Shown: positions 10,301 to 55,100 of the stretch, piece after piece
Layout: each line of letters opens with the position of its first letter
Position numbering within the stretch: the stretch's first letter is position 1
Assembly: GCA_964187785.1 (NCBI GenBank)
Contig: OZ076409.1
Location: 13,704,001 to 13,768,000 of the forward strand
Direction: 5' to 3'
DNA length: 64,000 bases
Source: Amphiscolops sp. MND2022
Lineage: Eukaryota
Translations under genes and position numbers: made by a program
The notes under the pieces: model-generated
What the model was told of the DNA's origin: nothing
What the model saw: the letters and a program-made list of their open reading frames with translations, nothing else
The model's database searches: none

Positions 10301-13300
10301 GAGTGGTAATTATCCATTCGTATGCTGACGTCATTGAGATGAAGCGAGCGAATGTTCGTAATTGTGCTTTCGTTGCCCCGAGTTATTGAGATGAAGCGAA
10401 TGAGTGTTAATTATTCGTTCGTTGAGAGCTTCGCCTGCATTCAAATGCGAATGCGAAACTTCGTCTACGCTTAGTAGTTATATTGTGACGTCATGATGCA
10501 TGACATCAAGAATTTTATATTTGCTAAACTTCGTGACCTAATAGCATGACAGATGTCATTCTAATCAGAAGTTAATACTTCATTATCAAAATGCTAATAT
10601 TTCATTATAAATGTAATCCCTCCAAACTTCATCCTATAATGATTTGAAGTCTATTTAATCTTATTATTGATTGATGTACTAACTAATTCTGTATAATCAG
10701 AGTAACTCGAATGTTGTAATCAACCAGTACTCTCATCTTGAAGAGAAAGTAAATCTGAGATCTCAGTCTAAGTAGTACTCCTCAGTTCAGTGAAAGTATA
10801 GCTAGCTAGACGGTATTCTGTTAAGACTTAGAAAAGAACTTCTTATGTACTTCTTAAATGAAATAACATCTAACATAAGACAAGTCTTAAACAGCTCAAT
10901 TGGTGCGACCACGAAAATTCTCTTCTCTCTTCCTCTCATACCTCAACTTCATTCTTCTTGTACACAATTTCTTAACTTTCTCATACGCTATTTCTTCGTT
11001 CGACACACTGTTTCACCTCCTCTTTCTATTGTATATCGATACTAACTTCTCTCATGGTTCTGACTACGTCTTTTCGTAATTCCTGTCAGTTACAAATTTT
11101 CGGTTCTGACTGCGTACTATCGTAATTCCTGTCAGCAAAATTTTTGGTTCTGACTACGTTCACACGTAATTCCTGTCAGTTAATTTTTCGTTCCAACCAC
11201 TACAAAGTGAATTCGTGTTGGTTTCCTTTTCATTTCCGTTCCAACCGCAGACGTGCGATTCGTGTTGGTTTTTCAATCGTGCTATCCGGCGATTCCTGCT
11301 AGTTAAATACTCTGGTTCTAGCCGCTTGGATCAACTCCTCTCAGAGTTGGCACATAACATAACATTTTCTCTCATCTCATAAAATAACATCTTTCCTCCT
11401 TTCAACTCTTACAATACTCATAACTATCTTTTTCTCTAACTCTCTAATACACTATAAATTTTCTCCTTTCTTAAACACTGCCGCGGATCAATAATACACA
11501 TTTCACCTTTAGAACTTTTAATAGTACACATTTCACTTCTAGAACTCTATAATTAACCTTCAGTACAAAATTTCAGTATAACCTTTTAGTACAACATTTC
11601 AGTATAACACATACCAAAATACAATCCAAAAATTTCATATAATTATAGTACATTATTTCTTTTGTTAATGCCTTCAGCTGATAAAATAGTACACTTCTTA
11701 ATTCTTCTTTGGTTCTCTCTTGGTATCCTTGCTGGTATTGCACTTTTCTTTGACAGATTTTTAGTCCCTTTTATACCAAGATTATAATATTTTACATTAA
11801 TATTTTACAATAGAATAACAAAATATTAACCCAAACTTTATATAACTCTTAAGAATTATTACCCTATATAACTCTTAAACCACTCTTATTTTCTATGATA
11901 CAAGCTATAATACTTCCTCTTTTTGGCATTTTTGGAATATATTACACAATTTGTACCTTATTATCACTGACATCCAATAAATTCCTGCTCTTACCTTTAA
12001 CCCTAATCACTGTTTTCCTACAAATAGCATTCGTAGATATAATACTTCCATACCCCATCAATTTTAACACAAAACACATTTTCACCCAATATCTATTTCC
12101 TATAGTAAACAATTTCTACTATGATTTGTAACGAAATTACATAATGCTTCCAAATCCATTCACATTTTCTTCACAACAAAGATCTTTTCGCTCAACCACC
12201 CATGATATAACACCCTTTTTACATAACCTAATCTATCAGTACACCAATCCACTTCCATTTGAAACAGAAACACATTCTATTCATACAATATCATTGCTTC
12301 GAGAACACTTAGATGCATACCTTTATTACTTTAGATACAAAACATTGGAAATCACACAATCACAACAACCCTTCCAAGTCATTTTCAATCCAATACCAGG
12401 TATTAACAATGGAACCTTCTATAGAACTATCCATCCTCGAAACTTAATTTTACCAATTCAAAATATTTTCACAAGCTACATTAACCAACTTATTGAACAT
12501 AATGAAAATTTAGACACACCTATATACAGACCATCTCTCCTCGAAGAATTGAAAGAAAAGGTAGACCTTTTTGAAGTCCCAGATTTAGATACAAAAATAA
12601 TACGCCACAACAACCCTCACTACTGGCTTCAACAAGATATTTTACAAGTAACAACTTTTCAATACAAATTCTTCAAAAATATTACACTAGATGATGATAC
12701 AATACCACAAATTAAAGTCTTCTCTCACTTTCTTTTGAAATTCTTCAGATTTAATTATCAACTGATATGGGAACCAAAAGACCAGAATGCATATATACAT
12801 TTTCCTCAAATACTAAATAAAACTGAACTTTTACCATTTATCATTCAAAACAACTCCAAACATCCTTATTACAAAAACTTCACTACACTCCATCCATCTC
12901 ACATTGAAGCTATAGAACTTAATACCGATTTTCTTATAGAACAATCTGAAACTTCAGATAGCCGACCTTATACAAACTTATTTCAAAACAACACAATGGA
13001 AGAAGAAAACCAATCTTCTGAAATTTCTGATAATCCACACTATACGCACTCAACACAAGACCACAACATTACCGATGAAAACGTAATTCAACATCAACCA
13101 ACAACTCCAAGACATACATCCCAAATAACACATGATCCAACAGAATCAGTACAAGACACAATTACAAACCCACCTAATACTTCTAGTACAACTACGGACT
13201 CCAATGCTCTTCAAGTACCTACTCGAAATATCACAGAAACTAACACTCATCTTTTCAATCAAGAAAACCCTTCTACTATCTCTATGACTAATGACACTGA

Positions 13301-16300
13301 AACACAATCATCTTCAATACACCAGACAATAACACGAAACTATGATCCACCACCTCCCCCATCTATTCACTCCACTCATAGTACCCCACACAACTCACCA
13401 CAACAAGGATCATCTAACACCTTTTTTACTCAACAACCTCCCTTAAACGAAACCCAATTTCAAACAACCACTCCCCCAATACAATCACCTCAAACAATAC
13501 CATATATTCCTGCTCAAATACCCGTACAATACAATAATCCTCCTACATTAACTATTAACACTCTACATACTAACCCTATATCAAACGTTACAACTTCTAG
13601 TACATTATCAAGACCTCCTTTACCATTAATTCAGAATAACCCACTTATGTACAACCTCACTAGTACCAATATACAATCACAACTTAACACAAATAATACA
13701 CAAACAAACTTAAATGTATTACACTCTAATACCCATCATCAAACTCATCTTCCTTCAACTATTACACATCCACCTCCACATATACAATCAGTTCCAATAC
13801 AACCTCAAGTCAATGTCCTAAATATCCCACCTACTTCTTCCAACCCTTCCACTTTACACACTATACCTCCAAATACAATACCTCCATCTACCATTAATAC
13901 ACCTACCTATATTAATTCTGCTACATCAATTTCAGAACCCATTAAACCTTTTGATGGTTTAGACCATAATTATACACCAGAGGAATACTTACAGCATATT
14001 GAGGCCCGCGTTACATTTTCGCTAGGCTTACAACCTCATACTACTCATGAATACAAATTTTGGCATGCTCGCCGAATGGCTTTTATACAATGCTCACTCA
14101 CTGGAACTGCCCTCAGTTGGTATATCCGATTAAATGACACTTACAAACAAGATTGGCACGCTTTTGTACAAGCTTTCAAAAAACAATTTTCATCACAAAA
14201 GAACGCTTATTATGCACAAGTTGAAGCTCTTAGTTTAACAAAGAAGGACAACGAAACTGTTCGTCATTTTGCCCTTAGAGTTCAACAACTTGTTGAAAAA
14301 GGATGGTGCAATGAGAACGCATCAACTATAAATCTCAAATGCAATGAAATTTTTACAAAAGGACTACCCAAAAATCTTAAAGATTTTGCAAACAAACGAC
14401 AAGTTAAACATACTTCTACTGTTTTAGAACCTTCGATACCTTTTCATACACTTGTAAAACTTGTAGATGCTGAAGACATCGCAAATGACAAGATACGTAC
14501 ACATGATCTCACTCTTGAAGTTAATAACCTTACAAAACAACTACAATCTCAATCCTTAAATCAACAACAAACTGACCAAATTATGTTTACACAACCACGA
14601 GACCCAAATAATAAAACAAAACCCGCTTACAAAAAATACTGCTCCTACTGTCATAGAACAAATCACTCTATCTCTGCCTGTTTCAAAAAACAAAGAGATG
14701 ATGAAGACAAACGCGATAGATATGCAAGATCAAAATCCCCTCAAAAATCCTTCGTACAATACTTTCGTTCATCCTCCAATGATAGAACACAAAGATATGA
14801 CACAAGACCAAACGAATATCACACTAGATACCGTAGTCGAAGTACATCTCGTCATGAGTATCAAAAACCTAACAGACAACGATCTATTTCTAGAACTCGC
14901 TATAACTACGATAGAACAACTACTCCTCCACACTATACCAGATCTCGCTATGACAACTACCAACGTGATTCACGTTCCCATCGTTCACCATATAGATCTT
15001 CCTATAGATCACCCCACAAACGTGATTCACACTCCCGTTATAGATCACGATCATACTCAAGAGACAACAACTTTTCACGCTATACTTCTTCTTATAGACC
15101 ACCATCTAGACCTAGGGATTCTCGATATTCTCGGTCCCGCTCACACTCTCAGACACGAAACAAAATAAATACCATACAACAACAAAACTCTAACGATCCA
15201 ATCAATTTCGAAATCCACATGTATCATCCAACCGAAATGGCAAATGCTTTAACACCTACAAGCTGGTTCTACTCTTTATATACACATACACCTTCAAACC
15301 AAATTCATCGTGACTTCCCTTCAAGACTTGAAATTTCCTTCCTCCTTGATAGTGGTGCGTCAATTTCTGTCTTAAACCACCCTACCTATATTACTATTGC
15401 AAAGCTTCTTAATATTAAACAGACTTCTTCTCATAATTCATCTAAAACACTTACCGTTGCAAACCAAACAGAAGTCCCTATTTTACACTATATTACCATT
15501 ACCTTAAATACAACTATTGATGATAATTCACGTCAATTTACAATTCCATTTGCAGTAGCTGATATAAAATACAACATTCTTGGAACACCCTTCTTTGAAG
15601 AAAACATTCAAAATATCAATATACAAGATTTTACATTACATTTCAAAAACCACTCAAGAGTATACCCAAACTATGCTAAATTCACTTCTTTACTATCCAA
15701 AGACTATCCATACTTTTCTTACATTTACAGAATAAACTCCAAAACACAAATCCGTTTAAAACCAAATACTTCCAAAATTGCACATTTTCCTATAAATAAC
15801 TATTATAACCTCCATTTCTCAACAACACCACAAAAACAATTTTTTCCCACAATTCCACACACTTACTTTTCCTCCAAATTTCGTACAACCTTCAATTTTA
15901 TTGAAGTCTTCACAGACGACAAACCAGACACTTGTGCTACAATTATACAAAACTCTACAAATCACATTGCAACACTACCTACAGGACACATTGGTTATAT
16001 TGAAGTTCCAATAACAAATGAAAAACCCAAATATTATCAAGTCAATGACATTAACACACTTATTCATAATGTTACTCATACTTACCATCCTGAAATTACA
16101 GAAATTATTCCACCCACTAATTATTCAACAACTACAGAACAACAACCAATATCTCCAACACAATTTTCATTAAATCAAGTATTAATGACTGACGCTGATT
16201 CATTGCCACATTCACCTTCTCTCTATAACGTACAACCTACTTCTCATTCCTCAAAACCACGAGTGTTTCCTTCATTACCATATTCACCAGAGAATCTAAA

Positions 16301-19300
16301 ATTCATAAATAAATTCAACTTTCAATTCTCTGACCTTACAGACACCGAGTATATCACACTTTGCAACTTATTACTCAAACACAAAACCTGTTATGCTACT
16401 CATAAAAACGATGTTGGTAAAATTGCTACTCCTTTCCGCATTCGTCTTAAACCCAATGCTCAACTACTTACACAACGTCCATCTAAAGTACCAATTCATT
16501 ACCGTGACAAACTTAATACTCTTCTCAAAGATTTAGAAAAACACAACATTATAAAACAAATTGGTTCCTCACCTCAAGACAAACCTGTTTATGGTACAAC
16601 GTATTTAAATCCTCTTATCATTATACCAAAAGGTGACTCCATAAAATGTGTACTTGATGCACGCCACCTCAATTCCAATACAGAACAATCCGACGAATCT
16701 TGGCCTATTGAACCTCTTGCTCCACAACTTGCACGAGCAAATAAAAAGTACAAATCAGCCATAGATCTCATGTATGCATATGCACACACACCTCTTGACG
16801 AAGAAACAATTAAACTCACAAGTTTCTCGTCAGGTGACAAACTCTTCGCCTTCATACGAGGCTTCTATGGTCTTAAAGGCCTTCCAAATTTTTTTACCAA
16901 ACAAATGTCCTCATTCTTCAAAACACTTATTGAACAAGGTTTTGCCCTTGTATACATCGATGATATTTTACTCCTTTCAAACTCTAAAGAACACATGTTT
17001 CAACTCATTGAACAACTACATAATATTAGCACGAAAAACAATCTTAAACTTGCTCCAGAAAAATCCTTTTTCATGCTCCTCAAAGTCAAGTTTTTAGGAC
17101 ATGAAATAGGTTATAACACTATCAAACCAATACACTCCAAAATTTCAGCTATACACAAAATCCCTTCACCAACAGGCAAAGTTGCTCTTATGAGTTTCAT
17201 AGGTGCACTCAATTTTTACACAAAATTTATAGACAAACTCCATATTAATCTTAAACCATTTTATGATTTATTACACGAAAATACCCCTTGGAAATGGACT
17301 GATGACCATGAACGTTTATTTCAAACCTTAAAAAACTCTCTCACTGCAGATACAGAACTTACAATTCCCAATACAAAACATCCTTTCTTTATTACCGTAG
17401 ATGCTTCCCTTATTGGATTAGGTGCTGTCCTTTTCCAATTAAATGACCACAATCAAATGAAAGTAATATCCTACAATTCTCGAATATTAAACCCTCAAGA
17501 ACAAAAACTCTCTACTCTTGAACGCGAACTTCTTGGTATAGTACACGCCCTTCAAATCTATGAATTTATTATAATTGGATCACCACATCCTATCCATGTT
17601 TTTACAGATCACAAACCTCTTTTACATTGTTTCACAAAAAAAGGAAATCTTAGTCCTCGCTTTTATAGAGCACAAATGCAACTTACAAAATTTTCAAAAC
17701 TCAAAATAATACATACTCCAGGAAAAAATCTTTCTGTTGCCGACCTACTTAGTCGATCTTTTACAAAAGAAGAATTGCAAATAAATCAACTCAAACACAA
17801 ACACCTTCCACCCCAGATTGACTTCACAATACTCCAAAACAACAAACTTCAACCTGTACATTACTTAATTAAACACGAAGAAGTTTTACCACATCAAAAA
17901 CATGACTCTCACCCTATTCTTGCTGATTATGGTACAGACCAATTTTCATTACGTATTAATGACAAAGGAAACGACATTATAGTTAAACCTTTAAACTCAT
18001 TTTCTTTCAATGCCATCACTCCTTTTCAAACAAAATTTAAGGCTCCTGCCAAAAAACATAACAAATCCCTTCACCAACAATCTCTTCTTCTCAATGATAC
18101 TGACGTTACTAGTGATGATGACGATCACATATATACTCGTATTCCAAAAACCAATTCCTCTTTCACACATGACACCAAATTAAAAGAACAAGAAACATTC
18201 TCTACCATAACCAAACCAAAACCTACCATCACACCAAAATCTAACTCCGAAACTACTTCTGCTATAGATGTACAGACAAATTCCACTTCTATGACACATT
18301 CTTCTCAATTAGTACCTTTTTATGACCCTTCCTTCTTCAAATATAAACTATATTTTCAAGGTTTCTTTCTTCCAGATGATTACTCCTTAGACCTCAAAAC
18401 ACTTCAAGTACAACAATCTCAAGACCCAGTTCTTCGAACTGTCCATTCTTGGATAATTAATAATGAAAAACCTGAATTTCTCACACCTCTTATTACTGGT
18501 AATCTCTTTTTACACGCTTATTACAAAAGATTCACACAACTTTTCATTGATACCACTACAAACCTTATAAGTCTTCACACAACACACCCACTTCCTCCTG
18601 AAACACACCCTATTTCTATCCCACACATTCTACACGATACTATCAGAATTTGTCTTCCTTTTAGAATGTTTCAAACAGTATTTAACAAGTTACATGACCA
18701 TTCTCACACCGGTATCAAAATCACGTATAACACTTTTTCTCAATATTATTACATCCCGTATCTTGAAAAATGGCTTTCTATTTTCATACATGACTGTCTC
18801 GAATGTCAGAAAAATAAACACTTTAACATGAAAATTCAAACTGCTCCTACACAATCATTTTCAGAACACGCTCCTTTCTTCAATTACAGAATCTCCATGG
18901 ATACAAAAGGACCTATAAACCCTCCTTCACAACACAAATCTTACATTCATGCCATTGTTGACACTTTCAGCCACTTTGTCGTTACAGTACCAATTAAATC
19001 CAATAACGCAAAAACTGCAGTCAAAACTTTATTACACCACTGGATTACAAAATATGGTCCTCCTATTTACCTTGTCACTGATCGAGGTACCGAATATGTT
19101 AATCAAGACATAGCTCACCTTTGTACACTTATGGGTATTAGACACTCCCCCCGAACAGCATACTCTCCTTGGGCCAATGGCCTTGTTGAAGTACAAAATC
19201 GAAATCTTGGCACACATCTTCGTATGTTTCTCCATAACACTCCTGAAAATTGGGCTTTCCAAGTACATATGTATGCCTATGCCCACAATTCACAACCGAT

Positions 19301-22300
19301 TTCAGAACTTAATGTTTCCCCTTACGAAATAGTTTTCCACACAAGACCCCGAATTCCACTTACATTTGATCTTAACCTCAATCGTAACACATCCAAAACT
19401 TGTATCTCACAATATTGTTCACAACTTCCAGAACACTCACACTACGATAAAACTGATTTAAACCCCTTCTTCTACAAAACACTATCCAAACCTATTCCAC
19501 AATGGTTTCTTGCTGTCGAAACTGCAATGCTTCAAATTTACTCAACTGTTTACTACTATACTCTCAAAAAACTCAATTCTCACGCTTATATTACCAAAAC
19601 CTACCATGAAGGTAAACCCCTTCCTATTGGTACTTTTGTTCTCAAACGTCATTTTGCACACGTTCACTTTTCAGACAAACTTAAACCCCTTCGAATTGGT
19701 CCATACAAAATTCTTGACCGATTATCCGATGTTACATATGAACTTCTAGCACAAGATGGTTCTACATTACATGTTCACCGAAATCATATAATCCCTTATT
19801 ATCCAAAAGAACCACTACTATACCCACACCTTCGTAATTTTATGCGTTTCTCTGATTCAATTAAATTGGACATTCCAAAACCCATTCAATATGCTAATAG
19901 CGACTCATCACCTTTTAATTCCGATGAATCCCTTTCTGACGATACATCAGTTTCGGATAATGACCAACTCTTATCACCAAACAACATTTTTCCACAAACT
20001 CCATCAAATACTAATCCATCATCAACAATTAACCTACCTTTTCAATCAATTCCTCAAACCCCTAGTACTAATCACTCCCGTGACAGAACTCGTCACCAAT
20101 CTCAAAATCAATCTCCATCACCTTCTTTTACAAATAATAGAGATACAAAAACTCATTATAACTTGAGACAACAACCAAAAATGGATTATCGTATTTTTAT
20201 ACCACCATCGAAATTGTAAAACATCCATTCACTTTCAAATCACCACTCCAATCAGTCACATAAAATTTGCAAATTTCTGATCAAACTGGCCTACCAATCT
20301 GGATTCTTCATCTGAAACATCTCCCTCTGCTCCTAATATACCTTCTCCATCTGAATCCTCTGTTTCAAACACAACTACAAATAGTAATGTAACACCAATA
20401 ACTCCTTCAAAACGACCAAGATCTCATATTATAACTACCTCTCCAACACCATCTTCTCATACACATTCAACTCATATTAGTAGACCACCTATTGCTGAAA
20501 TACCTTATACTCCTCGCTCTCGATCTCAACCGTCATTTGTCCACATACCACACCCTCATACTGTAGCACATCTTGTAAATTACAAACAACCAACTGCTAT
20601 TAAAACAGCCCGTGTTTCACCTAACCTTCCATCTAAACTAGATATTGTACCACTATCTGATATTGAATACACACCTCTACCTACATTACACTTACCATCT
20701 GAATCTTCAAACCCATCTCAACTTTACCCTCCTTTAAAACCACTTAGACATCCTTCCACTTCTCTTTCTAACTTAATAGACTCTCCTTCAGAATATCTAC
20801 CACAAACTGATACTTCAGGTTCTGATATAGTACCACATCATAGATATAATCTCAGACCTCTTCCCAATAGACGCCTGAGTGCAACCGACTCATCCACTCT
20901 TAATTTTTCAGCACTTTCTAGCAACTCAGCATTACGCCTTCTTAGACAACACGCTCAACCTTTATCTTCTGATACAGCACACTCTTCTGATTTTGTTCCA
21001 CAATCCTATCTCACTTCTGGATTAGACACAGCTTCATTACTTTCGTCTGACGTACAAACTGCATACTTATCTGGCAACCTCTTCTCTGAAGTCTTAGTAC
21101 CTACACCTGTTGCTCCTCACGTACGAATACCTGAATACTACACATATGATCAATCAAGACCGCCTACTCCTAATTTCGCAGACTACCCTTTACGTGTAGA
21201 CGGTGTTACTATATATGACCCACAAAACGATCCCCGTTTCCCTCTTTTAGCAGAACGATTTATTACCACAAATAACTCTCTCTCACATAAAAGAAAAGAA
21301 ACTGAATTAAAACGACTTCAAACTCCAAATCTAGAAATAAAATTTGAAGTCAAAGTTAAGTTTCAAGGTCTTAATCCACATCCCATATTTCACGTTGCAA
21401 AAATTGAACACAAAACCACTCCTGCCCCTTTTGAGGTAATATTCGTCGATTTCAACCGTGATCCTGAATTAAATGACCTAGCTTATGGCAAAATTGTTTT
21501 CTACAACCCCTTCTCTGGTCTCAAATATACAACTTCCTTTTAAAACACATGTTCTACTTATTATAACTCATGTTTTTCTCTTTTCTATCAACCCTTATAT
21601 TACATCTTCCATTCCTATCAAACCAACAGATGATGACAAATATCTTCCATCTGATGACCCAAATATAACAAATCTCATGGTTTCGCATTATGACTGTGCA
21701 AAACAACATAATCTTCGTCAATTTAACCTTCTCAATGTCAAACAATGTACCGAAGCTCCTTCTAACATACAACATGCAAACATTCAAGCTCGAGTTTATG
21801 TTAGAGCAAAAGCTAAACGTATTCGCGCTTTCAAATGTGAAGCATATGCAAAAAAAAGAACGAAAAATCTGCTTCCAAGGTAATGTTAAATACAGACGTG
21901 TTGACAGAACTGTTTGGAATCACAATACAATGCCACTACCTATCACACTTGATCCTCTTGAATGTAAAAATATTATTCGACACCTTAATGGAACTGATAA
22001 TAAAATATTGAACAATCTTAACTATAACAAAACTTTTACATTACTTGAAGACCACTACTTTCAAGAACAATTAGAACGATTTCAAACTCCTTTCACTGTT
22101 TACCAATTCAACAAAATGTATACAGGTACATTTACCTATATGCCCGCTGACAAAACTTGGATATATGATCCACTTCGAAACCCTTACCATAACTGTCCTG
22201 CTCATCACCAATTTGAAGTCAACTTAGTAAGTTGGCGTCTCGCTATATCTGAAATTGAACTAACATACGATGATACACAAAATGTTATGATCATTGATGG

Positions 22301-25300
22301 TCATACTCTTCCATGTTACTTTGCTGATGGTTTTTGCAAACCTACCACAAAAACTCCTTTCACACTTGTATGGTTTAGTGATGACTTTTGTCTTATCTTT
22401 ACTTTACAAGACTTTATTGGACGCATGACCAAAATCGATGATCGATACTGGATAGAAACTGATTCTTTCGTACACTCTGCTACTCCGAAGAAATCACCTT
22501 CCTTTGATGGTATCAAAGGTACTTCTTATCCGCACGTCCGTGCTCCTCATACTGAAACTCCACATAACCCAAGTCTTTCTCGTTTTGAAATTTTTCCTAC
22601 CGCTAACACCTTTTGTGGAAAACCTGAACCTCTATATTCTACTCAATATTCTGACCTTTTTGTTACTTACACAGAAGGATTTAACATGCATACAGGACAA
22701 CCAAACCCCACTTCTATAATTAATGAATACATCTCTGGTAAAATTGTATTAGACAAATCAAATTCTAATAATAAATATATCTTTCCTGCATTGAACGTTT
22801 CTAACAATTTCGCTACCATAGATTACGATGCACATATAAACACTAAAATTGACTACACGATTAACCATGTATTTCGCTCAATGACTGTTCAAGAACTTAA
22901 TACCCTTCATACAGTATGTGAATTAGAACGCAACCAACTTCTTACAATACTTGCAATGTCGGTACAAAATCCTCAACTTGCTGGCTTTCTTCTAACAGGA
23001 AATCGCAGTAATTTCCTTTACGTTGAAGGATCTACTGCTTGGTTATATGACTGCCCACACTTTCTTTCACCGTTATACATTGCTGATCGTTGTTTCGATC
23101 GAATTCCTATTCATTTCAAGGATACTCTTATGTACGTTGACCCAATTACAAGACAAACATATGACTATGCCACTCCTATTACATGTGACAATAACCCGAA
23201 TAACATTATTGAACTCGATCCTGATTCTGATGACCAAGATTTTTATATTCTTGGACCCGAACCTATAAAACGAAAACCTCCACTTATGTTTACTCCCTCT
23301 CAAATTAAAACTACAATACGCCCTAATACTTTTACAGCTCAAGATGCTGGTATATACTCAAATGCAGAACTAAATCAATTTTGGAATCGAATTCTATTTT
23401 CAAAACACTCTGATACTACACTTCAACTCTTAGGAAAAGCTCTTAGCTATTCCTTTATTTCTTCTAATACACCTGATTATGATGCAAATGAACCACATGG
23501 TAACCCATATAATACACTTCGGATTGGACTCCATGATAGATTAATTAACCTAACTCCCCTTTTTACTCCTACATGGTTCTCTGATGCCTTCATCGCTTTA
23601 TTTGGATATCCATGTTACATTTTGACACAATGTGGAATTTATTTTTCCACATATCTATTCATACAAACAATGTTAACTCTCATTGTTAAATTATACAAAA
23701 CTATTTCCATAAAGTACAATCTTAAACAAAATATTACACTTTTGAACTCTATTGCCCATGGTTTTCTTAATATTCTTACGGCAGACATGCTCCATGACCT
23801 AAAAAATGCTCGTTCAAAATCAACTTCTAAAAGTTCACAACAAATGTCAAACATTACTGACAACCCATTAGATGAATCTTCCTATAATCTAAATGATCCA
23901 AATGGTACTACTCCAAATCCAACTGGTATTACTTCACCACCACCTTTTTATACAAAACGTCCAAATCGGATTTCCAAAATGACTCGTTTTAAATTCCTTC
24001 CAAAACGAAAACAATATAATGTTCATTCCAAATCTAATCCTCAATCATCTTTACCACATTATTCTTCAGTTACCACAAATCCAAATGATTACACATCACC
24101 TGTCAATGACGAGATCGACACTCCTGTCCGCATATATTCAAAAACAAATTACTCCTTCACTCCGCCATCTTTTCAAACTAATCATTCTGACTTTTTCACT
24201 CCTCCGACATAGCTGCCACCTACTACTCTTCGATACAATTTCCTCACATAAACAATCTCTCAAAAATTTCATCTACCTTCTTCCAAAATAGAACAAAAAA
24301 TTGAAATAAAATTGCATTTGAACCAACCCGTCAATATTAAAATCGACATTTCGACTCCAAAAAACCTTTGATAAATCTACACGTTAGTGTTTTGTTTGAT
24401 ATAATACTTTCAGAAAACATTTCTTCAAATGACTCAAGCACAACTAGATTTCCATAATATGACTCCTCAAGTCACGCAAGAACAAATCGATCTCCAAAAC
24501 CAACTTGAAATACATACTGCTGATCTTATAACAAAACCTCTTTCAAATGACTCGCCTATTCTCTTTCTTGATACCAAAGAAACCACTGATGATCCCATTC
24601 AAGATCAAATGGAACACCAAAATATTCCAGAACAACAAAATATATCTACAATACCTACAAAAAATAAAACACCTTCAGACCCTGATCAATCTCCTGATAC
24701 TCCTCCGCCAACAAAAAAGAAATATGAAATTATGAAAGACCCTGCTTTTCTTTCATCACCCATTTATCCACCTATAATACCTACAAAACCGCAACTCTCT
24801 ACAACTCGTGATGACTATCTAGTACCAATTCTCTCTAATCATCGTTTCTCATTCAAATCACAACTAACTTCTCTCTACATGCATCCTACGGACTATACGT
24901 TCAAACTTTATGATAAAAATCAAGATTTCTTCACATCTATTGCCTCCAAAATCATGGCTCCCTACCACTATTGGCTTCATAATGGAATCAAAATATTTTC
25001 TCTACAATTCAATTTTCTTCGCCCATCAATATATGATCTCAAAACAGATGAAAATGATCCATCTTTTCTATCTACAGCACAAAAAGCTACCCATCATTTA
25101 ACGTATACTCGCTTTCTTCAGCATTCAAAACCTCAAAACTATATTTTTGCGAACTACAAATATACTTCTCCTTTCACAATGACAAATTTATACACGATAG
25201 ATCACTCGAAGATAACTGGCTATCTTCGCAACTATGACCCAATCAAACAATACTTTTGTCTGCTACCTCATAATGATACGTCTCGTCCTCTTATCGTACC

Positions 25301-28300
25301 TCAAGAGTATCTCATCCATTTTGATGACTTTCTGTTGCCTTGCAACATTCCAACCCAAATTGTCAAGCCTTTGACAGTTATCAAACACCTTGTTTCTACG
25401 CCGCTAGATGATAAAGATACGTCACATTATACAGCCTTGTATAAACAGTCCTACTCTTATAATGAACTTTTGTTTATAGCTGCAAAAGTCATTTCTTACA
25501 TGGTTCGCGCTGAACAAAGTCTCGAAATTCAAACTGAACACCAACGCCAAAATAAAACTCGTAAAACTCCTCCACCATCTCCTATAAAACAAACTACCAG
25601 CGAAAAACTCGCCACTATCCTCAATAATCGTACTCTGAAAAATCTAACCCAAATGTTGGATCCATATAAACGAAACTCTTCAGATTCTCCAATCACTACT
25701 CTTAACCATCTCATTCATTGCCATAACCGAACCTCACAACTCCTTCAAACTCTAGATCTCGATTCGCAACGTATCACACAATCCTCTCAAGCAATTCAAT
25801 CGGCGCTTGAATCTATGAATACTCTTTTTAATACTCTTAATATCAACTAAATCATCTCTCAGGTAATACAAATTTCTTTAATTTTCCCACAATATTGGAC
25901 ATTTTTGGACACCTTTTTCTGTTGTACACTTTCATTCCCAAATACAGGTAACATTCTTCATTTATTTTCACACATTTTTAGTACAAAAACTCTCCTTTTA
26001 TTATTTTACTTGGTCTCTCTACTATGGCATTCTTTAAAAATCTCTTTTGCAAAAACCTAACTACTATCCATAATATAGCACCAACGTATATTACAAATTC
26101 TAGCACCCAATTATAGAACAAAGAAATTTTTGATCAGTATCTCCAAAACTCAGACTCCTTTTGTTTTAGAAACTTCTCTTCTTCCTCCTGTTGGACCTCG
26201 TTCCACTTCCGCAACATCCAAATTTTATCAGGATTTAACTGTTCATTCTTATCCAAATGGCTCCGACCCAGCAATCTGAAATAAAAAAACTTGTTCAGTC
26301 CACAGAATCTAAGGTCCACAGTCTTAAGGCTGCAATTTTTCACACGATGGCATACAAAATGTCACTGGAGATAAACAAAGGCGATATTACTCTCCCCACC
26401 CGCCGCTCCTTTCTCAAGGTCTTATACAACGTTTGCCAAATTCGCAAGAAGGATATAACTTTCGAACAATATTACCGTATCCATGTCCATGGCCCGAAAA
26501 TTGCCATTTGTGAAATAACTTCCGATACAGTATTTGTCTTGAATTCTGCCTTCACTGCGAAGGACAACTATTTTCGCGTCGCCATCGATGAGGCCATCGA
26601 TGCATTCAATGCCGTTCTTTTGGACTTTGGGTACACCCAACAACTCCAAAAATACGACCCAACAACCCATCAAGTCCACCCGCAGCCCAAACACCCGTTC
26701 TGGCCAAAACCTCATACGTCAAACAAATCAACTTAATCAACTCTTACTCACCTCCACTTCTTCAAACTCCTGCTTCTCGATGACTTCACTTTCTCCAATT
26801 GCTGCTTCTTGATGACTTCACTTTCTCCAATTGCTGCTTCTCGATGACTTCACTTTCTCCAATTGCTGCTCCTCGATGACTTCACCTTCTCCAATTGCTG
26901 CTTCTCGATGACTTCACTTCCTCCATGTTCTAGATGACTTCACTTCCTCCAATTGCTACTTCTACATGACTCCACTTTTCTCAACTGCTTCTTCTTGAAG
27001 ACTTCCTTTTCAAACTTGTATTCGTATTTAATGAATTTTAACGAATCATTAACCTATTTACGTCTATTTAACCTCTCTATACTCAACCATGATTCTAATC
27101 ATTTAATAATAATCATTGTATAGTTCCTATTACTTTAGTTTAGTTACAATATTGGATGTAAAATCTATAATCACGTATAATCTTCTAATATTCATTAGTG
27201 CTTAATGTGTAAAATACAACAATTCATCCTATATTACTGAACCTCATCATATATTCTCCAATATTTAACACAATATATTCTTGAGTTCTTTCCTTTTTTA
27301 CAGTACAAGATCTCTTCTTATTGTACGACTGTTTTACTCTAAGAATTTGAACTGAAAATTTGAAGTTTGATTCCTTTTTTTGATCGTTCAATATGTCTCT
27401 AACTTTGAATGAAAAATGAACTCAACCTTTGCAACTTTTAGACTTCTTCACACTTTGTTCACAACCCGCCAATGTTTGTTCACACCTCATTGACAACTTC
27501 AACTATCGTTCTTCAATACCAAAAAGTTTTCATTTTGACTGCTCTTTTGAAGAACACCGAGAAAATTTTTAACAAAGCCGATGGAGCTTTTCACAAACAA
27601 TATATAAAATAAGTTGTCAATCAATAACTCGAACTCCAAATGTCACATCCATAGATTGACAGAACGTTGCACCAATGTGAACCGTCATACGATTAAGAAG
27701 TTCTAACCGTCCTAGGTTGTTCTCACTCCTTAAGTATGGTACTCTTATATCACATGAAACACCCAACACCTATAATACAAAAAACATTCAACACCTCTAA
27801 TGTAAAGTACAAAACCCAAAACCCTCAGCACACTTGGATATATTTTTCAAAACCCGGTCGATTGTGACGTCATGATGCATGACATCAAGAATTTTATATT
27901 TGCTAAACTTCGTGACCTAATAGCATGACAGATGTCATTCTAATCAGAAGTTAATACTTCATTATCAAAATGCTAATATTTCATTATAAATGTAATCCCT
28001 CCAAACTTCATCCTATAATGATTTGAAGTCTATTTAATCTTATTATTGATTGATGTACTAACTAATTCTGTATAATCAGAGTAACTCGAATGTTGTAATC
28101 AACCAGTACTCTCATCTTGAAGAGAAAGTAAATCTGAGATCTCAGTCTAAGTAGTACTCCTCAGTTCAGTGAAAGTATAGCTAGCTAGACGGTATTCTGT
28201 TAAGACTTAGAAAAGAACTTCTTATGTACTTCTTAAATGAAATAACATCTAACGTAAGACAAGTCTTAAACAGCTCAATATTTTCTTTAGTCCGAGAAGA

Positions 28301-31300
28301 ATTAAAGGCGGTGTAAACTTGTACAGTGATTACATGTAATTGTGCGCTAAATAATGATTGAACAGGAGTTTATTGATATTCCAGAAATGACTTTATTATT
28401 GAAAATAAAAAAGGAGTGTAGCGAACATTCTACGTCTGATTGGAAAATTGTTTTGAATAACCGGCTTTTTACCATTGTCAACTTCCATAGGGGATAAGTT
28501 CTCTCAGTTTGAAAAATTGTTGATTATTTCCTGCATTTTAGCTTTTCAAATGTCTTTAACTCTCAAAATGGCTTATTTCAGTATACTTCCATAGGGGATA
28601 AGTTCTTTCGGTTTGAAAAATTGTTGATTATGTCCAGCATTTTAGTTTTTTATTTGCCTTAGTCTCAAAATGGCTTACTTTAAGTGTACTTCCATAGGGA
28701 ATAAGTTCTGTCGGTTTGAAAAATTGTTGATTATTTCCAGCATTTTAACTTTTCAATTGTCTTTAACTCTCAAAATGGCTTACTTTAGTGTACTTCCATA
28801 GGGGATAAGTTCTGTTGGTTTGAAAAATTGTTGATTATGTCCAGCATTTTGGTTTTTTATTTTTCTTTAACTCTCAAAATGGCTTACTTCAGTATACTTC
28901 CATAGGGGATAAGTTCTTTCGGTTTGAAAAATTGATTATGTCCAGCATTTTAGTTTTTTATTTGCCTTAGTCTCAAAATGGCTTACTTTAAGTGTACTTC
29001 CATAGGGAATAAGTTCTGTCGGTTTGAAAAATTGTTGATTATGTCCAACATTTTAGTTTTTTATTTGTCTTTAACTCTCAAAATCGTTTACTTTAGTGTA
29101 CTTCTATATGGAATAAGTTCTCTCGGTTTGAAAAATTGTTGATTATTTCCAGCATTTTAACTTTTCAATTGTCTTTAACTTTCAAAATGGCTTACTTTAG
29201 TGTACTTCCATAGGGGATAAGTTCTGTTGGTTTGAAAAATTGTTGATTATGTCCAGCATTTTGGTTTTTTATTTTTCTTTAATTCTCAAAATGACTCACT
29301 TTAGTGTAATTCCAAAGGTGATAAGTTCTGTCGTTTTTAAAAATTGTTGAATATTTCCAGCATTTTAACTTTTCAATTGTCTTTACCTCTCAAAATGGCT
29401 TACTTTAGTGCACTTCCATAGGGGATAAGTTCTCTCGGTTTGAAAAATTGTTGAATATGTCAAGCATTTTAGGTTTTTTTATTTGTCTTTAACTCTCAAA
29501 ATGGCTTACTTTAGTGTACTTCCATAGTGGATAAGTTCTCTCGGTTTGAAAAATTGGTAATTATTTCCTGCATTCTAGCTTTTCAAATGTCTTTAACTCT
29601 CAAAATGGCTTACTTCAGTATACTTCCATAGGGGATAAGTTCTGTCGGTTTGAAAAATTGGTGATTATGTCCAGCATTTTGGTTTTTTATTTTTCTTTAA
29701 CTCTCAAAATGACTCACTTTAGTGTAATTCCATAGGTGATAAGTTCTGTCGTTTCTAAAAATTGTTGAATATTTCCAGCATTTTAACTTTTCAATTGTCT
29801 TTAACTCTCAAAATGGCTTACTTTAGCGTACTTCCATAGAGGATAAATTCTCTCGGTTTGAAAAATTGTTGATTATTTCTAGCATTTTAACTTTTCAAAA
29901 GTCTTTAACTCAAAATGGCTTACTTCAGTAAACTTCCATAGGGCATAAGTTCTGTCGGTTTGAAAAATTGTTGTTTGGTCCAGCATTTTAGTTTTTTATT
30001 TGTCTTTAACTCAAAATGGCTTACTTTAGTGTACTTCTATATGGAATAAGTTCTGTCGGTTAAAAAATTGTTGATTATGTCAAGCATTTTAGGTTTTTAT
30101 TTGTCTTAACTCAAAATGGCTTACTTTAGTGTACTTCCACGGGAGATAAGTTCTCTCGGTTTGAAAAATTGTTGATTATTTTCAGCATTTTAACTTTTCA
30201 AATGTCTTTAACTCTCAAAATGGCTCATTTTATTGTACTTCCATAGGGGATGAGTTCTGTCGGTTTGAAAAATTGTTGATTATGTCCAGCAATTTAACTT
30301 TTCAAATGTCTTTTACTCTCAAAATGGTTTACTTCAGTATTCTTCCATAGGGGATAAGTCCTCTCGGTTTGAAAATTTGTTGATTATTTCCAGCATTTTA
30401 ACTTTTCAAATGTCTTTAACTCTCAAAATGGCTTATTTTAGTGTATTTACATAGGGGATAAGTTCTGTCGGTTTGAAAAATTGTTGATTATGTCCAGCAA
30501 TTTAACTTTTCAAATGTCTTCTACTCTCAAAATGGCTTACTTTAGTGTACTTCCATAGGGGATAAGTTCTTTCGGTTTGAAAAATTGTTGATTATTTCCA
30601 GCATTTTAACTTTTCAAATGTCTTTAACTCTCAAAATGGCCTATTTTAGTGTACTTCCATGGGGGATAAGTTCTGTCGGTTTGAAAAATTGTTGAATATG
30701 TCCAGCAATTTAACTTTTCAAATGTCTTTAACTCTCAAAATGGCTTACTTCAGTATACTTCCATAGGGGATAAGTTCTGTTGGTTTCAAAAATTGTTGAT
30801 TAGGTCCAGCATGTTAGTTTTTTTGGTTTTAACTCTCAAAATGGCTTACTTTAGTGTACTTCCATAGGGGATAAGTTCTCTCGGTTTGAAAAATTGATTA
30901 TTTCCAGCATTTTAACTTTTCAAATGTCTTTAACTCTCAAAATCGCTTACTTTAGTGTACTTCCATAGGGGATAAGTTCTCTCGGTTTGAAAAATTGTTG
31001 AATATGTCAAGCATTTCAGCTTTTCAAATGTCTTTAACTCAAAATGGTTTACTTCAGTATACTTCAATAGGGGATAAGTCCTCTCGGTTTGAAAATTTGT
31101 TGATTATTTCCAGCATTTTAACTTTTCAAATGTCTTTAACTCTCAAAATGGCTTATTTTAGTGTATTTACATAGGGGGTAAGTTCTGTCGGTTTGAAAAA
31201 TTGTTGATTATGTCCAGCAATTTAACTTTTCAAATGTCTTCTACTCTCAAAATGGCTTACTTTAGTGTACTTTCATAGGGGATAAGTTCTCTCGGTTTGA

Positions 31301-34300
31301 AAAATTGTTGATTATTTCCAGCATTTTAACTTTTCAAATGTCTTTAACTCTCAAAATGGCCTATTTTAGTGTACTTCCATGGGGGATAAGTTCTGTCGGT
31401 TTGAAAAATTGTTGAATATGTCCAGCAATTTAACTTTTCAAATGTCTTTAACTCTCAAAATGGCTTACTTCAGTATACTTCCATAGGGGATAAGTTCTGT
31501 TGGTTTCAAAAATTGTTGATTAGGTCCAGCGTTTTAGTTTTTTGGTTTTAACTCTCAAAATGGCTTACTTTAGTGTACTTCCATAGGGGATAAGTTCTCT
31601 CGGTTTGAAAAATTGATTATTTCCAGCATTTTAACTTTTCAAATGTCTTTAACTCTCAAAATCGCTTACTTTAGTGTACTTCCATAGGGGATAAGTTCTC
31701 TCGGTTTGAAAAATTGTTGAATATGTCAAGCATTTCAGCTTTTCAAATGTCTTTAACTCAAAATGGTTTACTTCAGTATACTTCCATAGGGGATAAGCTC
31801 TGTCGGTTTGAAAAATTGTTGAATATGTCCAGCATTTTGGTTTTTTGTTTTTAACTCTCAAAATGACTCACTTTAGTGTACTTCCATAGGTGATAAGTTC
31901 TGTCGTTTCTAAAAATTGTTGATTATTTCCAGCATTTCAACTTTTCAATTGTCTTTAACTCTCAGAATGGCTTACTTTAGTGTACTTCCATAGGGGATAA
32001 GTTCTGTCGGTTTGAAAAATAATTGATTATGTCCAGCATTTTAGTTTTTATTTGTTTTTAACTCAAAATGGCTTACTTTAGTGTACTTCCATGGGGGATA
32101 AGTTCTGAAAAATTGATTATATCCAGCATTTTAGTATTTTAAATGTCTAACTCTCCAAAGGTATTCGTTTCGAGTAATTTTCTAAGGGACCTGCTATGTT
32201 CGATTGAAAAAATATCGCTTATTTGCGGCATTTTGGTGAATAGTTTGTCTTTGTCTTATAAAATGGTTTTGTTTAGTATTTTTCAGTTTTTATTGATTAT
32301 TCTTTTGGTTCCTTGTGCAAATTTTGTCTTCCTCTGATTTGCTATTTGGTAATTTCACTACTCCCATGATGTAGACACAATTTACTGGGTAAGACGGGCC
32401 TAACCCAGCCTGCACAGTACGAGTGTCTACTGGGTTCTTAGTATTGGTTGACCTCTCTTGAAGCAGGTAGACCGTTACAGTTCTACTCTTCAAGAATCGG
32501 GTTGAGGTTAACCCTAGACTCCAGTAGACACTCAAAATCTCTTGCACAAGTACTGATTCGATTCGATTCCAATCTTCACTTTTCTTCCCTCTTCGATTTA
32601 AATACCTCTACACTGACTATATGGCGGTATCACATGTAAATTGTACAATTTCTCTACGTGGTATGGAATTACTGCAATATTGTTTTAATCAATTGTTCTT
32701 GAAATTAACTAGCTTGCTCCGTCATTATTTTTTACTTTTGCTGACTTCTCTTTTGTCTTGGAAATAGTTTTTCTGGCTAATGTTTTTTTGCTTCTGAAAG
32801 GGTATAAAAGCAGAAATAATCGTGTGCCCCGGAGGGGCCTATTTTTCACATCGCTTTTTCGCTGAAAAACTTTTTCATCAAACTATTAAATGTTTGAATT
32901 CAAGAATTTTGAAGAAGTTTTAAAATAATAACTTGATTCATTTTTTTCAACAAAATTGAATTTTTCATACTATGTGGGTTTTACCAGGGTAAAATAGAAA
33001 TTTCAGGAAACTCGGAGGGAATTTTGAATTTAAACAGTTTATTAGTTGGCTCTAATTTGAATCACTAATAAAATCGCTGAAAAATTATGCGCGGCCGCTA
33101 AATCGCTAATTGGCAGTGTCAACATTGGTGCAAAATTGGACTAAGTCCGCCTTTTCGTAAAATTCAAAAATTAGAAATTTTTTCGAGACATCTGCTTGGA
33201 ATTGGAAGATTTACTTCCGGCCATTTTTATAAATGATTTTATCCCGTTAAGTTATGTGTTAACAGAAGACGAACTTTTGAAATTTTTTGTAGTTGCAGTA
33301 GCATATGTGAGCTCCGAAGGGGTCGACGTTCATGGCCATGTGTGAAAGCGAAGTACTGATCATTCTTGCCCGAATGATTTTCAATCATTGGAAGTTTGTG
33401 TTTGATTCGAAATTTTGATTCAACACTAGCCAATTGGTGCTAACCAGTAACTGTTTGACTTAATTTTTCCAATGACCAATGAGTGTGATGATTACTGATG
33501 ACTTGGAAGTTTAATTCCAGGGACCAAGTTGATGAGAATGAATTGAGACACAGGACCACTGCGACTGGCACCGAATTCACCCCCAATGTAAGCGGGGGAG
33601 GGGGTCAGTCGGGATTCAAGTGGTATCCCAACGCCATCAAGCCACAACATTCTACCATCGGGAGCTCCATGAAACCTCCTGAGGTATGACAATGCCACTG
33701 GATGATAGTCATTCACTGTAATATATTTTGTCAATTTTTTGGTTTTTGAAGTTCCCAAACTTTTGAGACATTCACCGTCGAAATGTACTTTTTTTAGTCG
33801 GCGCTTCATGAAGTGAAACGCGACTGTAATAGTGACTTTTTTCAATCCCCGCGAACTGACCAAAGTAGTTCAAGCTCTACAAAATTTTAAGGGGGCCAAA
33901 TTGTACCATTTGGCCAATAGAACTGAACTTTTAATGTCTCCAAAGGGTCCATGCAATTCTTTGATATTTTGCAACAGAATGGATGTTGAAAAAGCCTAAA
34001 GGCCCACCTTTTTTTTACATTTTTGGGCATGAGACTTTCAAAATTCTCTTTCCGTTTTTTTTTAAAAGTTTTTAATGTCTCTAATAAAACTCGCCGAAAA
34101 TTCTCTGGCGGAAAATTTGTCGCATATACAGAAAATCTCAGCCAAATATTGTGCCAACTTTGTGATCGTACTATGTTATGAAGTTATAAAGTATTACACT
34201 GTAAACTATAGAAGTGCAACATTTCAAGCTATTATATAACTAAAAAAGGTTTCGCATGCCTTGTGAACGTACATTCAGTTAAATTTTTTAATTTAAAAAA

Positions 34301-52133: not shown

Positions 52134-55100
52134 TGTTACTGACCTCGCATAATAGATGAATTCGTCGTATCAGTCGTGGGGACAGTGGCCAAAAAATGAT
52201 TGGTCAGGAAATGCCCGGAAACACTGACTAAGATTAGCAAAAGGTTGAGACCAGTAAAATAACTGATATTATAAAAAGTATATTTCTGATATAAGAGTAT
52301 ATAGAAAAGAGGAGGGGTAACACAGAGGGGACAGTTTCGAAATATATTTACCTGAGGAATTGGTTTCCTCTTTCGCTTTTGTTTTGGCTATTGCCAATAC
52401 AACATTGGCTATTGTTCTTTCAGAAGCATCGTTGAAAACGTGTAATTCTTTATGAACTGGTTGTTTGGAAGCTTTTAAATATTGTCGCTTGATGTGAACT
52501 GTCGAAAGGTTGGCTACATCTTCGAAAAAAAAATTTTAGCTCAGGATAATTTTCAAGCGCGATTGGACGATCCCAATGTAGGTTTCCCTTCTAAATTTGC
52601 TGAAGAGAGGTGCGAACGCGAAATTGAATAGGTCACGACATACCAAGAGAGTCGAAAATTGAAGAAACGTACTTCAGTAGAGTTCTTTGTGTTACCTTTT
52701 TTGGAGTGTCTTGAAAATTGTTAGGTTGCAAAAGATAGCAATCGTCAATCGGATTCCATTTCACACCTAATACTCTGTCGATACTTTTCTTGTTTGTATT
52801 GATTGGTGCTGAATTCGACCTGTCGGACTCCGGAATGGTTTGATTGACTTTAGGAAATTATCGAGACAGCTGGCTCCGATGATGAACATAATGAAAGACG
52901 TAAAAGATGATAATAATGTAACAAATGCGAAACATAACGAAACGAATGAAAAAGTAGGTGAAACAAAAGTTTATTCTCCTCAAAGTTGTTTGAATTGATC
53001 AAATAAAACAAAAGCGACGGATGAACAAGAGACGTAACGAAGATTGGAACAAGTAGAAAGAAGAATCCCAGAGACGAAACGAATTGGAACCAACGTGATA
53101 ACAGACACGAAGAATGGGATCGACTTTTCACGTTGGGCGCCAAAAGCATGTTACTGACCTCGCATAATGGATGAATTCGTCGTAGCGGTCGTGGGGACAG
53201 TGGCCATAAAATGATTGGTCAGGAAATGCCCGGAAACACCGACTAAGGTTAGCAAAAGGTTGAGACCAGTAAAATAACTGATCTTATATAAAGTATTTTT
53301 CTTATACAAGAGTATATAGAAAAGAGTAGGGATAACACAGAGGGGACAGTTTCGAATTATATTTACCTGAGGAATTGGTTTCCTCTATCTTTTCTTTTCT
53401 TTTCTTGAACTTCGTTTATATATCTTGCAAAGGCCCAAAGTTTAATTTTCGAATAATTTCATTCAGGAGAACTTGCAATGAGCAATACGAAGTAACAACA
53501 TTCAAAACTATTCAAAAGATTTCACGTATGAATCACAATCAAAGAAAATCATCAATCGAAAATGTTCAGTCACAACATATTCCGACCCCGAGAAAAGGTT
53601 TGGATGAAAGTTGATATCACTATTCAGGTAAAATTATGGTGAAATTTCATGTTTTGTTTACGATTTCGACAGGAATTTTTGACAACTTTACGACTGTGAA
53701 TGTAGCCATGGGTCGTTTTGAGTCTGCAAGATCGCACGACTCCATCCGCCCCCAGAAACACTTTGTCAACCCTTGCCGTTGGCCATATCCCACGTGGCGT
53801 AAAATCTTCTAGTACCCAAACCAAGTCGCCAGACTGCAAATTTTGGGTTGGAGTGGACCATTTACCACGGTTGAGGAGAATAGGCTTGTTATCTTTCAGA
53901 AAACGATTCTAAAACTGATCAGAGATCTGATGTGCTTGCTTCCAACTGCTGGAGATAGTAACTGACTTATCCAAGAAAATGTCGGGTGGAAAGTTTGGCT
54001 ATGGACGGCCCAGTAGGAAAAGGTTTGGTGTGATTGGTTCCACATCTCAGAAATCGCTGGAAACTTGAGTTAGAGTCGACCATTCATCATACCAGCAACT
54101 TCGCACACAAATGTCGAGAGGGTGTCATAAGTCAAAGTTCGAGAACCAATTAAACGGTAAAAGGCTTTCTTGAACACATTTACCAAACCCTCCCAAGAGC
54201 CACCAAAATGAGGCGATGATGGGGGGATAAAGCGCCAATCCAAATGGAGTAGTAACAAGGCGTCGCGAAAGGAATTGTCCGTTCGAAGTTTCTCATTGCC
54301 ATTTTTCAGTTCTTTACTAGCTTTGATGAAAATTGTTGCATTGTCAGAGTAACTTTGGTTTGGATTTCCACGCAAAGAAACGAAACGACGTAATGCCATG
54401 AGGGTTGTCTCTGTCTTAAGATCAACACAAGTATCGATATGAACAGCCCTTGTGACAAGGCAAGTAAATAGCAAGCAATATCGTCTCTCGAATTGGCTAT
54501 TGTCTTTGATGGGAAACGGACGAACGAAATCGAGTCCTGTTGTAAGAAATGGAAAGTGGTTCGCAGAAGGTAAGCGACAATCAAGTAGATCAGCCATGAT
54601 CGGATAGTCAACGTGCTGGGTTATTCTTCTGCAAGGAATACATCGATGGATGATGGTCATGAGTGCAGACCGACAACGCAGAACCCAAAACTGCTCTTGA
54701 ACAATGCTACGAGATTGTTCGAGACTAGCGTGGGAATTGTTTTTGTGGATATGGAGGAAAAACAGTTTTACTGCCGGATTTTTCGAATCAAGAATGATTG
54801 GGTAACGAGCCACAAGCAGATATTTAGCTTTGGAAAGCCTGCCACGAGAGCGAAAAAGACCTTGACGATCAAGAAATGGAGAGAGTGATGACATTCGTGA
54901 GTTAGATGCAGGAGGTGTTTGATTCCTTAGAGCGTTGATTTCTTCCGGAAACGAAGTTCGTTGAGTCTCCGATAAGATCCATCTGAACGCTTTCATAAGG
55001 TGAGCAACACCCAGTCTATCGTTGATGCGACGGTGTTTGTCCAACAATAAATAACAGAATGCAACTGTTTTGAGGAGACGAATCCATTGACTAAAATTTT

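Follow-up and report, generated by a model that had tools for sequence, protein, structure and literature searches.

A repeated bulged-hairpin array in the 5' leader of an env-carrying Ty3/gypsy retrotransposon: a putative RNA docking platform

An array of six hairpin units was identified in the 5' leader of a young Ty3/gypsy retrotransposon of Amphiscolops sp. MND2022, between the primer-binding site (PBS, ending at 10911) and gag (starting at 12144). It occupies positions 11057-11353 of the window, the 64,000-nt stretch of contig OZ076409.1 analyzed here, and all features below lie on the forward strand unless noted. Covariation among related leaders makes it very likely that the array is a selected RNA structure. 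Its position, repetition and family specificity suggest a packaging site: the array may act as a multivalent docking platform for an element-encoded protein that marks full-length RNA for packaging, a reading that could go either way. The array varies on the structured leaders of LTR retroelements in being modular and family-specific; its binder is a candidate and its function putative. A literature search, with most subscription papers and preprint supplements outside its scope, returned no description of such an array.

The retrotransposon and its genes

The array-bearing element is a full-length LTR retrotransposon of 17.8 kb (10484-28277) with a class-III env-like gene. The 5' LTR (10484-10898, 415 bp, TG...CA) has one mismatch to the 3' LTR (27863-28277), and the insertion is flanked by a 4-bp target-site duplication (ATAT). 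These termini and this duplication, together with the order Gag, RT, RNase H and integrase, are those of Ty3/gypsy elements. A Troyka identity was rejected on the same features, as that group is defined in the accessible text of its description by CG...CG termini and a 3-bp duplication (PMC12440569). The 1.07-Gb assembly contains 2,601 first-look candidates for the leader, and the 40 leader candidates that were scored show 98-100% identity. A 104-bp satellite (35 copies, 28481-32107) begins about 200 bp past the element. Fragments of other retroelements lie at 54070-55224 (reverse strand) and 59873-63399 (forward strand), with an integrase zinc finger and DUF1759, protease and weak RT matches.

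The PBS (10901-10911) adjoins the 5' LTR directly, and its first 9 nt are common to families A-E (the labels A, A2 and B-F are our own; the window element belongs to A). A primer tRNA search found no tRNA gene among the fetched loci. The local fold predicts that a conserved word at 10995-11006 pairs with the PBS, and the core of this word is present in 82 of 86 A/A2/D/F leaders. Near the other end of the element, about 190 nt 5' of the 3' LTR, 11 nt (27666-27676) form a complement of the LTR-end/PBS junction. Others like it are located about 220 nt (family D, the best duplex in 2/3 loci) and 240-260 nt (family C, 2/2) before the end of the tested stretch, and none is clear in B or E; 5'-3' circularization or primer mimicry is possible. 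The stretch ahead of the 3' LTR (27849-27862) is not a typical polypurine tract, and a similar one occurs in D.

Three upstream ORFs are present in the leader. The first (11054-11125, 23 codons) spans the first two hairpin units and holds the sole ATG between the LTR and 11667. An ATG precedes a CTGAC unit in 83/86 leaders; past the first codons, length and sequence vary by subfamily, and a peptide reading of the array was rejected since the ATG is kept and the frame is not. The other two are hydrophobic and encode candidate small membrane proteins: one of 39 aa (11668-11787), with counterparts in the leaders of D (40 aa) and B (48 aa), and one of 78 aa (11895-12131), with a similar ORF in D.

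Gag-Pol (12144-20219, 2,691 aa) carries a single zinc knuckle with an Arg/Ser-rich stretch after it, and its Pfam domains appear in the order Retrotrans_gag, RVT_1, RT_RNaseH, Integrase_H2C2 and rve; the protease was recognized solely as a DSG motif in the translation. It is followed by a Met-free open frame of 420 codons (20281-21543) with homologous frames in B, C and D (L107:547-1782, L108:561-1802, L103:421-1890, L099:327-1685). These frames span 412-490 codons, with zero Met in all five copies from four families. ATG is rare across all frames of the region (4 in the window copy against about 11 expected, and 0-2 in three other copies). This scarcity points to expression that is non-AUG, spliced or recoded, or else to scanning that carries on to env. 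A Y-N-L-R word occurs both in the Gag-Pol C-terminus and in the Met-free frame; in foamy viruses, such a word forms the core of the motif by which Gag binds chromatin.

The class-III fusion (env-like) gene (21485-24212) is split in this copy into overlapping frames (21485-21883 and 21690-24212) that match PF24664, Monjiviricetes_fusion (E 1.2e-19 and 0.0054). Downstream lie ORF473 (24429-25850) and ORF159 (26257-26736), neither assignable to a known family, with two strong splice-donor-like words between them (25860 and 25945). A 32-bp tandem repeat of 7.7 copies (26752-27015) occupies the 3' UTR directly past ORF159.

The element resembles the gB-type env-carrying Ty3/gypsy elements described as 'errantiviruses' in its GAG-POL-ENV order, class-III fusogen and multicopy young insertions, as far as the accessible text of that survey describes them (PMC13524379). 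The criterion of that group, a class-III fusogen gene after pol, is found here in two frames. The element differs in its extra ORFs and in LTRs that stand 17 kb apart, beyond the 5-14 kb limit of the survey. The accessible main text contains no UTR or stem-loop term, and the PBS word is absent from the seven supplements in the one orientation searched (PMC13524379).

Anatomy and covariation of the array

The first five units share one layout: a 5-bp lower stem, a 4-5-bp upper stem with a free loop, and a 6-7-nt bulge on the 3' side. U1 (11057-11091) and U3 (11147-11181) are plain examples. U2 (11103-11137) has a G-U pair in its upper stem, in a haplotype found in 66 leaders, and U4 (11190-11223) has the 7-nt bulge. 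U5 (11238-11270), with a GACG loop, is the commonest unit and is identical in 58 leaders. U1-U3 repeat with a period of 44 bp. The sixth unit (U6, 11289-11325) is circularly permuted: it retains the same bulge (11292-11297) and both helices, closing on the opposite side, and forms the P2 arm of a three-way junction (11279-11353). This junction consists of P1 (11279-83/11349-53), P2 (from 11284/11331) and P3 (11333-37/11344-48), with a single junction base, C 11332. The array starts 158 nt past the LTR, and neither LTR contains a unit by covariance model.

Among 29 shared units, loops vary and bulges are few (24 middle parts against 5 bulge types). The bulge is G-free in 16 of them, and an invariant unpaired GUU stands ahead of each stem. 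A sequence-only reading had placed the array at 11056-11325, and every stem and bulge that it named was found at its position. It had described the bulge as a fixed ATTC(C/G)T; each unit does have the bulge, but that of U4 is 7 nt long and the third base varies in relatives. The split CTAGC/GCTAG unit that it listed is present, but it is really the permuted U6, and the junction around it continues past the proposed end of the array, which cut it off. That reading missed the junction, as well as the replacement of hairpin type between families.

A covariance model of the bulged unit, which had been proposed as a check, scores U1-U5, the units on which it was trained, at 41-50 bits, and no other place in the 64 kb exceeds 11 bits. 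In 68 loci totaling 503 kb, which comprise leaders from B, C and E as well as twenty 3' regions, it gave one weak match (E 1.8). The Rfam check gave no match: in Rfam 15, the best hit in the window reached 18.8 bits (E >3) with none over the array, and five leader loci (B, C, D, F and E) had none at E <=1. Relatives were also sought beyond the source genome; an exact 22-nt pattern had 0 occurrences in metagenome contigs, and 0/20 candidates from query P0010 in viral contigs were confirmed.

The covariation analysis draws on 158 loci fetched from the same genome, using baits from protein searches; these are the best-scoring copies per bait rather than a random sample, de-duplicated by locus id only. 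Sequence anchors alone were used to extract 418 units from 86 leaders (A, A2, D and F), and about 4 mis-parsed units were kept in the counts. Each leader carries 3-6 units. All 7 stem haplotypes present in at least 3 leaders are fully paired, against 17/44 of the rarer ones (Fisher p = 0.003). Where a rare haplotype lies one base off a common one (n=29), a pair is broken in 21 and becomes G-U in 8, the pattern expected of decay after insertion. Of the five that lie two bases off, three, each from subfamily F, alter one pair on both sides. Common haplotypes include fixed G-U pairs (in 66 and 6 leaders).

An alignment was built from 38 distinct units of four subfamilies, comprising 29 found in at least 2 leaders and 9 singletons from two F copies, with other singletons excluded. 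Both-side changes occur in 7 of 8 pairs, a result reached by 2/500 shuffles. Paired cells amount to 93.4% (79.0 +/- 1.2 when shuffled), and 18 of the 20 unpaired cells are accounted for by six 7-nt-bulge units that MAFFT placed one column off. The covariation score of 0.513 was reached by 0/500 shuffles, and slid controls were at most 36% paired. RNAalifold recovers the same structure unaided, with 8 of 9 pairs compensatory. Because the units are related by duplication and the shuffle ignores relatedness, significance is overstated; about 10 independent double changes were counted by eye. The selection on pairing that had been proposed from the window sequence gains support from this family-wide covariation.

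Thermodynamics alone would not show the structure, and the case for it rests on covariation. The 281-nt array region has z = -0.84, with 38/200 shuffles folding as well; its reverse strand folds about as well, and neither strand has a global folding signal. Single units score z = -0.66 to -2.71 and the junction z = -2.57. Each of U1-U5 folds alone as a lower stem, an upper stem and a 3'-side bulge. In the predicted ensemble of the region, P1 of the junction has a pair probability of 0.97, and the within-unit lower stems of U1-U5 have 0.01, 0.91, 0.00, 0.09 and 0.09. This predicted arm swapping arises because neighboring units share identical arms. A between-unit register as the selected structure was rejected, since the upper stems of U3-U5 covary within units and not between them.

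A branch-point or 3' splice-site reading (CTGAC...CAG) was also rejected, as units of the U4/U5 type lose both words yet stay paired. No conserved splice donor was found 5' of the array, and a donor-like word in the 3' LTR of the window is private to this copy (34/34 other matches have A).

Sister families and candidate binders

Gag-Pol identity to the family A element of the window is 78% for F, 67% for D, 55% for B and 53% for C; A2 was found via an ORF159 relative, and E via a bait 36% identical to A. A pairing-based descriptor found the junction core 81 times in A/A2/D/F leaders and 22 times as the C type, with 4 stray matches in 2.2 Mb. The core is common to A/A2/D/F, B (3-5 copies) and C (one). 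Between families, the pairs of P1, P2 and P3 change while the junction bases stay, and the junction is the more widely conserved part. In B, 3-5 tandem junction units occur in 15/15 leaders (20/21 distinct units fold accordingly), with no bulged hairpin. In C, 24/25 leaders carry 5-8 hairpins of another type, whose covariation is weak taken alone (1/7 pairs with both-side change among 12 units, upper stems not counted). The distant family E has neither junction nor hairpin. The P3 loop and stem of the C junction share a word with the bulge and lower 3' arm of A, and the bulged unit may for this reason derive from P3.

Two of 79 insertion flanks (L064 near 2391 and L120 near 4315) lie within the array in a sister element's leader, and the orientations agree. 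Nine of the 79 lie in a related element. The binomial p is about 0.02, with detection bias. In family E the last ORF encodes a TRAF/MATH-domain protein (L113:5807-6706 and L116:7060-8061; PF22486, E 8.9e-12 and 3.9e-10) with a weak PAM2-like N-terminus, possibly a captured immune-signaling domain.

Three element-encoded proteins were considered as binders. The Gag zinc knuckle does not change among A, D and F, and B and C show modest differences. ORF473, like the Met-free frame, is found in A, B, C and D and not in E, a distribution like that of the junction; it has no Pfam match and no usable Atlas match. ORF159 is clear in A, A2 and D (61-63% identical in D), leaves a weak trace in C (HHalign 40%, 28 columns), and has no homologue in B (HHalign 0.3%) or E. 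A six-frame scan of twenty 3' regions agrees with this distribution, the 3' LTR being reached in 5/5 B, 2/4 C and 4/5 E regions. Among 50%-cluster representatives ORF159 has 224 relatives, all unnamed. Its structural models are of low confidence (pLDDT 58 and 62) and thus uninformative rather than negative. The best VIA match had Z 6.4 and covered a helical hairpin only; Foldseek against PDB and BFVD gave no match at E <=0.001, sequence comparison with PDB gave none, and there was no usable Atlas match and no match to a recognized or RNA-binding fold.

The type of hairpin parallels the last ORF: A, A2 and D have the bulge and ORF159, C has the other hairpin and a faint homologue, and B and E have neither. 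This parallel covers four lineages, with the 3' end of F outside the comparison, and a terminal ORF that diverges fast could give the same appearance. We infer that ORF159 is the leading candidate binder of the hairpins, with Gag as the alternative.

Bulged hairpins read by one protein include HBV epsilon, HIV TAR, IRE arrays and lambda boxB/N; IREs occur as five-copy arrays, and boxB/N pairs are phage-specific. TAR is a single hairpin at the transcript 5' end, inside the LTR. Hepadnaviral epsilon is one long bulged hairpin with a conserved apical loop that primes P protein. In contrast to these systems, the array has no conserved apical loop, lies outside the LTR and belongs to an element with a PBS. 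The TAR/epsilon likeness put forward from the sequence therefore stands as an analogy of shape and goes no further, the array being repeated and outside the LTR. TAR identity was rejected on the start of the array beyond the LTR and the lack of units in either LTR, and epsilon identity on the short repeated stems, free loops and presence of a PBS.

A putative packaging platform and its alternatives

In the proposed mechanism, the hairpins would form in the RNA, and each would display, between two stacked helices, a pyrimidine-rich bulge of 6 nt, along with a free apical loop. The bulge-helix shape would be what the reader protein recognizes, because U6 keeps this shape in reversed connectivity. 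The three-way junction would represent an older, clade-wide site, most simply for Gag with its zinc knuckle and Arg-rich stretch, and the hairpins would be added, family-specific sites for ORF159 or, alternatively, Gag. Several proteins loaded 150-450 nt past the PBS could hinder scanning and so shift the RNA from translation to assembly.

The position of the array matches that of retroviral packaging regions (PMC5035971, PMC7395439). The psi-like, multimeric binding site for a protein that had been put forward from the sequence is compatible with this position and with the anatomy of the units. In the accessible parts of these sources, the leader signals of retroviruses (the HIV-1 core encapsidation signal and RSV psi) are likewise structured, 3' of the PBS and 5' of gag, and contain many protein sites and three-way junctions; the array is alike in the latter by predicted structure. 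It differs in repeating one small module in variable copy number, with free loops, a G-poor bulge and swaps of module between sister families. The covariation, the free loops, the fixed G-U pairs, the junction that recurs in B and C and the parallel of hairpin type with the last ORF count for the platform; the array also tolerates a copy number of 3-6 units, and sister families differ in hairpin type. The unremarkable overall fold, the arm swapping and the G-poor bulge count against it, the last being unlike typical nucleocapsid sites as described in the accessible text of PMC7395439.

The strongest alternative, unlikely in our estimate, is an element akin to Rev/RRE or CERV, in which ORF159 or ORF473 would oligomerize on the array and export or stabilize unspliced RNA with no direct role in packaging. 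The ORF159-hairpin parallel fits this too, and the several downstream ORFs require separate expression. Ty3/gypsy elements offer a precedent in C. elegans Cer1, whose CERV is required for genomic RNA export (PMC10309623, accessible text); the window element is likewise of the Ty3/gypsy type and has an extra gene, of no known family, that might act on genomic RNA. CERV is described there as large and ORF159 is small, a comparison by description rather than sequence. That text has no stem-loop, tandem or bulge term and so offers no cis element to compare (PMC10309623). Against export stand the lack of similarity of ORF159 and ORF473 to known proteins and the young copies of family B, which has neither hairpin nor ORF159 homologue.

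A site for a host protein, such as a CTE/MTE-like export element or an RNA localization signal, is distinctly less probable. The musD MTE and MLV PTE are structured elements that use host machinery (PMC5767303, in its accessible part), and repetition raises avidity for any binder. A single host factor should however conserve a single motif, and co-resident families differ in their hairpins, although the junction that they share might still play this part.

It is very unlikely that the array is a DNA-level tandem regulatory repeat, an insulator or enhancer like those of Drosophila gypsy, ZAM and Tirant. Their 5' UTRs also hold tandem leader units, 19/49 Drosophila LTR-element 5' UTRs being tandemly repeated and some active as insulator or enhancer, and the 44-bp period of U1-U3 would suit this. 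Those repeats are described, in the accessible text, as DNA motifs (PMC8872304), whereas what is kept in the array units is pairing and not sequence. Recognition by a DNA-binding protein depends on sequence; here the arms vary yet stay complementary, include G-U and in one unit are permuted. The words of flank and bulge are conserved as sequence.

Equally improbable is a neutral by-product, in which tandem duplication and template-switch correction of imperfect inverted repeats mimic covariation with no selection: the units are clearly duplication-born, number 3-6 and fold weakly as a region, but correction of this kind would wear away the bulge and the G-U pair, and both persist; pairs are broken in rare copies (21/29 single changes) and not in common ones, and the junction is still present in families with 53-55% Gag-Pol identity.

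For LTR retrotransposons, even Ty1 and Ty3, packaging sequences still lack a precise definition, according to the accessible text of PMC4974528. The array amounts to natural mutagenesis, a 35-nt module repeated, permuted and swapped among families, so that the recognized shape can be read from sequence and is open to tests with short RNAs. A further, tentative and rather doubtful possibility is that each co-resident family has its own RNA-protein pair, a leader hairpin type with a matching small accessory protein, serving as a self barcode. Such pairs would be the bulged hairpin and ORF159 in A and D, and the internal-loop hairpin and a diverged 158-aa protein in C; B would have neither, the junction being multiplied instead. 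If true, these barcodes would keep the genome of one family from being packaged or exported by another, and a eukaryote would be the source of natural orthogonal RNA-tag systems. Should the accessory gene be the reader, the question of how dozens of related elements within a single genome separate their own RNA becomes open to test.
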